A stretch of 51,284 nt of DNA from Bacteroidota bacterium. Lineage in GTDB: Bacteria; Bacteroidota; Bacteroidia; Cytophagales; Cytophagaceae. The stretch spans positions 1 to 51,284 of the forward strand of contig JAEVZS010000001.1 in NCBI GenBank assembly GCA_023392125.1, written 5' to 3'. A program made the translations under genes and the position numbers. Under the pieces are notes generated by a model. It worked only from the letters and a program-made list of their open reading frames with translations, was not told the origin of the DNA and made no database searches. Position 1 is the first letter of the stretch. Each line of letters begins with the position of its first letter. Of the stretch, positions 41,075 to 41,639 are shown piece after piece.

Positions 41075-41189
41075 CGAGAAATAGCGGCAGGAAAGACCTG
41101 ATGAGAGTTTCTGTATGGCTCCATAGTATTATTCCGGTTGGAAATAATATGCTGCTCAATGTTGGTTGTTTCTCACCACCTTGTGTGTT

Positions 41190-41278
41190 GAAGGTTCGAA
41201 TCCTTCTGCTGACGGAAGTCAGTATAGCTTAACCTGGTAGAGCAACAAGCCAAGCGGGTTCGAATCCCGCGCTCCCTG
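41190..41278 (+). ncRNA. tRNA-like, anticodon-less element: T-arm, a hairpin, a D-arm, a short linker and a second T-arm. Candidate tRNA mimic (Y-RNA-like) or tRNA pseudogene debris
   Basis: Two canonical T-arms are present: GAAGG-TTCGAAT-CCTTC at 41190-41206 and GCGGG-TTCGAAT-CCCGC at 41255-41271. A canonical D-arm, GCTT-AACCTGGTA-GAGC, lies at 41227-41243. No anticodon stem-loop can be placed, because only 11 nt separate the D-arm from the second T-arm. The sequences flanking the hairpin loop GGAA, namely TGCTGAC and GTCAGTA, are complementary. The second T-arm is identical to that of the tRNA-Cys at 47971-48042. Confidence 0.3.
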
Positions 41279-41639
41279 TTAAGGATGGAGATGTTCTGTA
41301 AAGAACAATGGAAAATGGGCTCATAATCCATTTTGAAAGAAGCTGATCACTTCTGAAAATGATCAACACAAAAGAAGGTAAAGGTCCGGTAACCATGGGT
41401 TTCTATAGAAACAAAGGCAATCGGAGCAAGGCCCTGAATCGGCAGGATACCGTTTTTCAGATCCTGTTTACGTTGAATGAAAAATCGCTTCTGAAAGAGT
41501 CATCAGGCTATTTTGAAAGTAAAAGTTCAGTCGACCTGTACAGGATTGGGAAAGCTAAATGTCGATTCCGTTTTGCGACGATGCCGGACCTGAGCTTCTT
41601 TTATTCAAAGTAAGAATTTGATTAATAAATAGGATAATT

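Follow-up and report, generated by a model that had tools for sequence, protein, structure and literature searches.

We describe a circularly permuted tRNA-like element, here called module 1, in the leader of an RNA repair operon of a Bacteroidota bacterium; it is very probably a functional tRNA mimic of the YrlA type. The DNA analysed is contig JAEVZS010000001.1 (assembly GCA_023392125.1), positions 1–51,284 of the forward strand; we refer to this whole stretch of 51,284 nucleotides (nt) as the window, and its coordinates count from the first letter. Module 1 (41180–41249, + strand) was identified by its match to the Rfam YrlA model, its fold and its covariation. It is one of several RNA elements occupying an 814-nt leader between a WYL regulator gene and a Band-7 gene, and a model of it matches in all 13 leaders of this kind that were compared. 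We favour the interpretation that the region belongs to a structured, conserved leader RNA, about 700 nt long, of a WYL-regulated Band-7/RlaP/RtcB operon, in which the core mimic is the RNA partner of the Band-7 system.

A permuted tRNA-like module without an anticodon loop

Read 5' to 3', module 1 begins with the 5' strand of an anticodon-stem equivalent (CTTGT, 41180–41184) and a variable loop (41185–41189), followed by T-arm 1 (GAAGG-TTCGAAT-CCTTC, 41190–41206) and a closed acceptor hairpin (41207–41224) in which TGCTGAC (41207–41213) forms 7 bp with GTCAGTA (41218–41224) across a GGAA loop. Then come U8-A9 (41225–41226), a D-arm (GCTT-AACCTGGTA-GAGC, 41227–41243), A26 (41244) and the 3' strand of the anticodon stem (ACAAG, 41245–41249). 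A preliminary description of this DNA had proposed two T-arms, the D-arm and the helix across GGAA, and all of them lie where it placed them. The minimum-energy structure of isolated 41180–41249 is a four-way junction containing all four helices (-20.2 kcal/mol, z = -2.2). The nucleotides that make tertiary contacts in tRNA (U8, A14, R15:Y48, G18-G19, T54-Psi55-C56 and A58) can all be assigned in the window, and to judge from its sequence module 1 keeps all those required for an L-shaped fold with D-loop/T-loop contact. The T-loop 11-mer GGTTCGAATCC occurs exactly three times in the window, in T-arm 1, in a second T-arm downstream (T-arm 2) and in tRNA-Cys, compared with a mean of 0.75 matches in shuffled sequences when one mismatch is allowed.

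In a sensitive Rfam run covering 40800–41700, YrlA (RF02553) is the best non-tRNA match, at 41182–41248 (34.8 bits, E = 1e-5, model positions 23–86 of 114), and spans the T-arm, the closed acceptor and the D-arm core. The preliminary description had allowed that a covariance-model scan might reveal a complete tRNA folded wrongly by hand, but neither ARAGORN nor the Rfam tRNA model finds one at 41180–41290, and the sole overlapping tRNA-clan match there is tRNA-Sec, with 22 bits against a threshold of 47.

Recurrence, covariation and conservation of module 1

Related loci were obtained from a profile search with RlaP, which gave 80 genomic loci, and from exact-protein look-ups, which gave a close relative (L082/L083, RlaP 92% identical) and eight further loci in which Band-7 is 60–64% identical to the protein of the window. 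Two covariance models were made, R1 for module 1 and R2 for a 5' domain described below. R1 matches in 13/13 Bacteroidota Band-7 leaders (the window included) with scores of 46–86 bits, 330–520 nt upstream of the Band-7 ATG, and has no match in most other loci among the 80 from the RlaP search. The layout is the same in every Bacteroidota locus that has this Band-7 subfamily, with a WYL regulator, a non-coding gap of 0.75–2.1 kb, Band-7 and RtcB. At this position the relatives carry the same anticodon-less module and no intact tRNA.

The helices of module 1 covary, as the preliminary description had suggested an alignment of syntenic regions might reveal. In an R1-derived alignment of 15 sequences, standard pairs make up 95.7% of cells as against 78.4% in shuffles, changes on both sides are seen in 13 of the 17 pairs, none of 500 shuffles attains any of five covariation measures, and pairing collapses to 42–54% once the 3' partners are slid. 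Each sequence was additionally parsed independently of that alignment (13 sequences from 12 lineages). In this parse the acceptor hairpin differs in sequence in almost every lineage and is yet 97% paired (TGCTGAC/GTCAGTA, TCCGCC/GGCGGA, TCTCAA/TTGAGA, TCTTCC/GGAAGG and TCTGCC/GGCAGA are examples), and compensatory types are present at all five pairs of the anticodon-stem equivalent. Every helix of module 1 has compensatory changes and so does the tertiary 15:48 (Levitt) pair, which is A15:U48 in the window, L092 and L096 and G15:C48 in the remaining ten; even L082, a relative 98% identical to the window, has the other form of the pair. By comparison, U8-A9, A14, A21, A26, G18-G19 and the T-loop are invariant in the 13 sequences.

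Minimum-energy folds of the whole region propose a competing long-range stem, TTGGTTGTT/AACAAGCCAA (41162–41170/41243–41252), which would destroy the D-arm. A GG to AC change in L082 affects one side only and breaks this helix, and we rejected it because that change is one-sided while the D-arm covaries.

These comparisons bear on a possibility raised in the preliminary description, that past rearrangement at a tRNA cluster left behind decayed pieces of tRNA genes; integration at such a cluster could have done the same. The two T-arms do adjoin a tRNA gene, T-arm 2 is identical to the T-arm of tRNA-Cys, and a tRNA-Lys-like gene in one related locus (L027) precedes a second copy of the gene's 5' acceptor strand together with a D-arm. 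The identity with tRNA-Cys, which the preliminary description had singled out, is real and uninformative, because this is the consensus bacterial T-arm and recurs in the leader of L086; for the same reason we rejected T-arm 2 as a recent copy from tRNA-Cys. Decay also does not account for a permuted order and compensatory changes found in 13 lineages whose Band-7 proteins are only 50–64% identical, and the divergence of the related loci likewise argues against recent horizontal copies of a single element. Moreover, the leader is 97.9% identical to that of L082, compared with 76–94% at third codon positions of the flanking genes and 40–62% in other intergenic spacers. It is therefore under selection and more conserved than synonymous sites, and because its conservation exceeds that of both classes of site we regard decayed fragments as effectively ruled out.

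Relationship to YrlA and to Ro60

Module 1 shares with YrlA the order of T-arm, loop-closed acceptor-like stem and D-arm with no anticodon loop, the same conserved tertiary-contact nucleotides, and a position inside or ahead of an RtcB repair operon, facing a ligand-sensing regulator. In YrlA the tRNA-like domain takes a true tRNA L-shape (bioRxiv 10.1101/312249), and module 1 is probably homologous to it. There are also substantial differences. Module 1 is without the long 5'/3' terminal stem that bears the Ro60 site, and positions 1–22 and 87–114 of the Rfam model are unaligned; its 34.8 bits are half the Rfam gathering score of 69; it is flanked by the 5' domain, a second tandem module, an anticodon-like hairpin and a pseudoknot; there is no rsr nearby in the window, the adjacent gene being Band-7; and it is found here in Bacteroidota. 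Because the Ro60-binding stem is missing, the 51 kb hold no rsr and the score is below threshold, we conclude that module 1 is not a canonical YrlA. The preliminary description had anticipated a YrlA-type, anticodon-less mimic beside RtcB and WYL genes, and this stands as far as the YrlA core, its presence in 13/13 loci and its covariation are concerned, but does not extend to a Ro60 stem, an rsr gene or a score above threshold.

The threshold itself is a conservative criterion, because a bona fide YrlA of Paenibacillus (L056), adjacent to Rsr, also falls short of it at 33.6 bits; the Bacteroidota modules score 32–47 bits, all below 69. In Paenibacillus R1 also has matches, at loci where 60 nt separate the module from a downstream Rsr (TROVE) gene, itself followed by RlaP, Hen1 and Pnkp. 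In L056 it has the long 5'/3' terminal stem and occupies the same slot, between a WYL regulator and the first gene. A full-length canonical YrlA with a terminal stem (87.4 bits) adjoins RtcR, ahead of RtcB, in Pseudomonas (L077), and R1 matches there as well.

Could module 1 nonetheless be a canonical Y RNA that binds Ro60, with rsr located at another place in the genome? Its similarity to YrlA would fit, and as the Paenibacillus example is equally sub-threshold, the low score alone is not exclusionary. A search for TROVE/Ro60 (rsr) found none among window open reading frames (ORFs) of at least 250 aa (Pfam) or among called genes of 12 related loci, and it is possible that rsr lies elsewhere in the genome. 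However, the Rfam alignment is limited to positions 23–86 with no terminal stem, the sole candidate for such a helix, TTGGTTGTT/AACAAGCCAA, is broken in L082, and the place of the terminal stem is occupied by a different conserved domain. With these observations and the TROVE result, we judge a canonical Y RNA to be quite improbable.

The operon and its regulator

The gene facing the leader (39089–40825, - strand, Pfam) encodes a divergent regulator with WYL, WCX and PhyH domains, PhyH being an Fe/2-oxoglutarate dioxygenase domain. The fusion of WYL-WCX to PhyH is kept in five related loci (L086, L088, L090, L093 and L096), where the gene likewise faces the leader. Between this gene and the RNA elements is a perfect, operator-like inverted repeat, CTGCGCA-N7-TGCGCAG (40876–40896, + strand), with a Bacteroidota -7-like promoter element, CAACTTTG, on its 3' side (40905–40912, + strand). 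The block containing both (40876–40912) is conserved in the aligned leaders of eight lineages and presumably marks the start of the leader transcript and the operator for the WYL regulator. Downstream on the + strand, Pfam assigns Band-7/SPFH (41640–42731), an RlaP nucleotidyltransferase (42782–43540), an RlaP-like protein (43522–44574) and the RtcB ligase (44590–46002). No terminator-like site was found on the + strand from 40900 to 41640, and co-transcription of the leader with the repair genes is therefore plausible.

Some related Bacteroidota loci add two RlaP genes, HEPN_Apea or CdiI_3. In L086 (5799–7101) and L096 (5671–6060) the operon goes on to encode a protein with a HEPN_Apea RNase domain or an immunity-like CdiI_3 protein, which links the repair cassette with systems of toxin/immunity conflict. 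Just past the WYL regulator gene there is another, shorter Band-7/SPFH gene (261 aa, 38157–38942, - strand), in L082 too. Elsewhere in the window a 2098-aa protein (26902–33198, - strand) carries 19 Ig-like repeats of the CHU_C-associated kind and a sorting tail for type-IX secretion, which agrees with a Bacteroidota origin.

Other elements of the leader

Module 1 is followed by module 2 (41254–41307, + strand), recognised by comparison with relatives. It comprises T-arm 2 (GCGGG-TTCGAAT-CCCGC, 41254–41270), a weak acceptor-like hairpin (CTCC/GGAG, 41271–41290) and a D-arm-like hairpin (GTTC-TGTAAA-GAAC, 41293–41306). Module 2 is intact in L086, L092, L093 and L095, with its T-arm, a closed acceptor and a D-arm with GG, and is absent from L088, L096, L049 and L026. 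The second T-arm thus opens a module that has partly decayed in the window.

Next to module 2 is an anticodon-arm-like hairpin, AAAATGGG-CTCATAA-TCCATTTT (41312–41334, + strand; as RNA, AAAATGGG-CUCAUAA-UCCAUUUU), which is found in all 12 lineages. It has a conserved core (ATGGG/TCCAT) and a loop of the form CU-NNN-AA in 9 of the 12, and the triplet varies among them (CAU, AAA, GAA, UAA, GUU, GUA, CAA and GAU). The preliminary description held that no anticodon stem-loop could be built, which is correct for module 1; this hairpin lies just past the point at which that description ended.

The arrangement of these arms raises the question of whether the element is a permuted or split pre-tRNA and a substrate of RtcB, with RNase P and RNase Z opening the acceptor hairpin and RtcB joining the other ends to give a functional or CCA-tailed tRNA-like molecule. 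The acceptor hairpin of the window is exactly 7 bp, RtcB is encoded downstream, and module 2 of the relatives together with the anticodon-like hairpin supplies all four tRNA arms in permuted order. In vivo, the YrlA of M. smegmatis, also with a 7-bp stem, undergoes RNase P cleavage and CCA addition (PMC4201824). On the other hand, the acceptor stem of module 1 is at most 6 bp in 9 of the 12 lineages, with loops of 2–7 nt; no conserved discriminator or CCA was found at this acceptor across the 12; the anticodon triplet is not conserved; and module 1 has no anticodon loop. We therefore consider an RtcB-processed pre-tRNA very unlikely.

Beyond the anticodon-like hairpin is an H-type pseudoknot (41339–41365, + strand), consisting of the hairpin GAAG-CUGAUCA-CUUC, an A-rich linker (UGAAAA) and a tail that pairs with the loop through UGAUCA. 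The loop–tail pairing is 5–6 bp in 12/12 lineages with differing sequences (for example UGGCCC/GGGUCA, UGUCCA/UGGACA and AAGCAA/UUGCUU), and the pseudoknot is not in Rfam. Its architecture resembles that of small riboswitch pseudoknots with an A-rich tail. We considered and rejected a PreQ1-I-like riboswitch, which is alike in general architecture but has no Rfam match at E <= 10. The remaining leader, up to the Band-7 start codon (41366–41639, + strand), includes the blocks GGAUACCG (41445–41452), UUCCG (41566–41570) and GAUG (41580–41583). The 3' blocks are conserved across families, some of them into Paenibacillus (L024), with indels between lineages. An 84-aa ORF at 41359–41613 is probably non-coding, as it has no Pfam match and its tblastn homologues are near-identical relatives only.

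On the other side of module 1 is the 5' domain, a conserved three-helix element (41083–41156, + strand) within the interval covered by the preliminary description, which missed it. It has a closing stem (AGCGGCA/TGCTGCT) and two hairpins, ATG(A)GAG-UUUCUGUAUGG-CTCCAT (41101–41124, + strand) and TATTATTCC-GGTT-GGAAATAATA (41127–41149, + strand). RNAalifold predicts 17 pairs for the domain from 12 lineages, of which 12 have compensatory changes. The loop UUUCUGUAURG looks invariant, with AUAUGCUGCUU on the 3' side. Over 1.07 Mb of sequence R2 matches only the 13 Bacteroidota Band-7 leaders, and the domain has no match in the sensitive Rfam run. We rejected a hammerhead ribozyme: the domain contains CUGAUGAG, but has no GAAA/stem III arrangement and no Rfam match. 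The motif of the 5' domain had no matches in viral contigs. A T-arm followed by a canonical D-arm within 12–24 nt is seen in more than 120 viral contigs (loci L097–L176); this pattern is generic, and tight tandem phage tRNA genes match it too.

The most 5' of the leader elements is an embedded tRNA-Tyr(GUA)-like gene (40991–41074, + strand) whose acceptor has 7 bp, whose D-stem is unusual at 5 bp, and which has a long variable arm and encodes no CCA. The preliminary description placed a tRNA-Tyr here, and the gene is real but odd: Rfam scores it at 36 bits against a threshold of 29, in sensitive mode only, and ARAGORN and default Rfam, run on the whole window, both miss it and call a single tRNA, tRNA-Cys (47970–48042, - strand). 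Its homologues in L086 and L090 are called by ARAGORN, and the D-stem covaries (CCAAC/GTTGG and CTACC/GGTAG). The embedded tRNA is optional. Tyr(GUA) is present in the window, L082, L086 (2267–2352) and L090 (2130–2213), the leader of L095 embeds Glu-UUC and Gln-UUG tRNAs (2238–2384), and that of L027 a Lys-UUU-like gene (644–718); apart from these and L088 and L092, no leader has one. In L088 (about 2075–2330) and L092 (about 2030–2290) a large tRNA-like RNA replaces tRNA-Tyr. Its 7-bp acceptor (CTCCTCT/AGAGGAG in L092) and D-arm are accompanied by a stem whose loop has 13 nt, and an insert of some 110 nt precedes the T-arm and discriminator A. Rfam gave no match to these large RNAs at E < 0.05. 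The tRNAs for Tyr, Glu, Gln and Lys are typical targets of anticodon nucleases, and the embedded tRNAs may be co-induced replacement or sentinel tRNAs.

Two further loci contain related arrangements. Upstream of the leader in L027 (480–770) are three tandem units of about 55 nt that start with GGTGCCGTA...GTTACTTCG, the last of which merges into a 'tRNA-Lys' called by ARAGORN, after which come a second copy of the acceptor 5' strand of this tRNA and a canonical D-arm. This suggests a possible route by which permuted tRNA-like units originate. In the Firmicute Paenibacillus ginsengarvi (L024, 4490–4660), the sequence upstream of a Band-7/RlaP operon has a T-arm (TGGGG-TTCGATT-CCCCA) and an acceptor-like hairpin that is closed, together with a D-arm in truncated form, an anticodon-like hairpin CTCGA-CTTTCAA-TCGAG and a GGATACCG block. 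Both R1 and Rfam miss this leader unit. From its T-arm, hairpins and GGATACCG block, the Band-7 leader RNA seems to cross phyla.

Possible roles of the leader RNA

How might such an RNA act? In the interpretation that we favour, in which the mimic is the RNA partner of the Band-7 system, the leader would be transcribed on induction from the WYL-controlled promoter together with the repair genes, and RNase P and RNase Z would excise the embedded tRNA-Tyr and so free the downstream RNA. The tRNA-shaped modules would then partner the Band-7 scaffold and the enzymes, as a Y RNA does for Ro60, and could either recruit enzymes that handle tRNA (RtcB and RlaP) or compete with real tRNAs for a damaging nuclease. 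In Salmonella the rsr-yrlBA-rtcBA operon is induced by tRNA halves, and YrlA's tRNA-like domain has been proposed as a competitive inhibitor of anticodon nuclease (PMC7790460). The chance that the mimics act in trans as a cofactor or decoy seems to us close to even, if slightly below it.

The main alternative is that the tRNA-shaped domains stay within the operon mRNA as a cis-acting leader that senses an activity directed at tRNA, be it that of an anticodon nuclease, RNase P or an enzyme of tRNA modification, for example, with cleavage or binding altering downstream expression; or fragments with 2',3'-cyclic phosphate ends could be the ligand of the WYL regulator, mirroring the action of tRNA halves on RtcR. 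The elements are invariably found on the coding strand, after the conserved promoter/operator and before the first ORF, with no terminator-like site, conservation runs on through the covarying pseudoknot and the 3' blocks to the start codon, and the anticodon-like loop CU-NNN-AA is kept as a shape while its triplet varies. However, no expression platform (terminator/antiterminator or sequestration of the start codon) was identified in the leader, module 1 offers no anticodon loop for cutting, and a damage-induced anticodon nuclease did not cleave Salmonella YrlA (PMC7790460). We thus hold a sensor of this kind to be possible, in each of these forms, but only tentatively so.

A broader proposal is that the whole leader is a single undescribed multi-domain RNA, conserved between Bacteroidota and Paenibacillus and serving as a dedicated RNA subunit or sentinel of Ro60-independent Band-7/RtcB repair. 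Its parts would be the optional tRNA, the 5' domain, one or two permuted mimics, the anticodon-like hairpin, the A-rich pseudoknot and the 3' blocks. It might, for instance, be a tRNA-shaped decoy that reports a tRNA-targeting attack to the WYL regulator by being damaged or occupied. We regard this proposal as speculative, with a minor share of the probability.

Several points weigh against the mimic being the RNA partner of the Band-7 system. Its position in the leader is equally compatible with a purely cis-acting leader. The 13 leaders compared come from a single phylum, they are also the training data for R2, and the R1-derived covariation alignment was fitted to the model itself. In the window, module 2 is degenerate, with a D-loop (TGTAAA) that has no GG and a weak acceptor. 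The function of canonical YrlA is itself unsettled. Finally, a Band-7-associated tRNA-like RNA (b7a-tRNA) was predicted by Burroughs and Aravind in 2016, and our comparison with it draws only on the description quoted in bioRxiv 10.1101/312249, which limits how it can be mapped onto the elements of the leader.

The finding has a bearing beyond this operon. Bacterial Y RNAs have so far been understood only as partners of Ro60. A YrlA-type mimic linked constantly to Band-7 and RtcB, with neither a Ro60 site nor its gene, suggests that the tRNA-mimic function is separable from Ro60, and points to the repair enzymes or a Band-7 assembly as the real client. It also provides a conserved target, with a cultured carrier in Chryseolinea serpens (L088), for the 2016 prediction, as quoted, that as scaffolds Band-7 and Ro60 can stand in for each other. 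New structured elements absent from Rfam are added in the form of the 5' domain and the pseudoknot.

Comparison with other tRNA-like RNAs

Circularly permuted tRNA genes, of the type found in Cyanidioschyzon merolae, pass through a circular intermediate to give functional tRNAs, and their anticodons and processing motifs are conserved. As in those genes, the T-arm and the 3' strand of the acceptor here precede the acceptor 5' strand and the D-arm, and module 2 of the relatives also has an anticodon arm. In contrast, the acceptor is closed by a loop of 2–7 nt, module 1 has no anticodon loop and the downstream triplet varies.

A closer parallel in organisation is provided by Deinococcus and M. 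smegmatis. The Y RNAs of D. radiodurans are transcribed together with a tRNA and arise by processing of precursors, and in both the Deinococcus Yrn2-tRNA(Asp)-Yrn1 and the M. smegmatis YrlA/YrlB precursors, tRNA-like RNAs and a genuine tRNA share one transcript upstream of the scaffold gene; there too, extra RNAs have a T-arm only (PMC4201824). Those RNAs bind Rsr and have terminal stems (PMC4201824), whereas the partner gene here is Band-7, and the RNAs of the window sit in the leader of a protein-coding operon.

The b7a-tRNA is the most direct point of reference. As reported in bioRxiv 10.1101/312249, Burroughs and Aravind proposed that either Ro60 or Band-7 can be the scaffold, each having its cognate tRNA-like RNAs; the same source places YrlA 'occasionally' beside Band-7 and describes b7a-tRNA as without experimental validation as of 2018. 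We found no later literature on a Band-7-linked tRNA-like RNA. The likeness is evident, in that both are tRNA-like RNAs next to Band-7 and RtcB; in the window, the tRNA-Tyr-like gene lies 566 nt and the modules 391 nt upstream of Band-7, in the same orientation. The quoted statement that b7a-tRNA 'strongly resembles an authentic tRNA' would fit tRNA-Tyr (40991–41074) and would not fit module 1, which has no anticodon arm. Two differences from the quoted description are that the YrlA-type module accompanies Band-7 in 13/13 Bacteroidota loci and not occasionally, and that the authentic-looking tRNA is an optional part (Tyr, Glu with Gln, or none). A Band-7-linked tRNA-like RNA in outline, and an occasional YrlA beside Band-7, are thus already contained in the 2016 prediction as it is quoted. 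The constant Bacteroidota association, the tandem modules, the 5' domain, the pseudoknot and the optional embedded tRNAs appear to go beyond the accessible literature.

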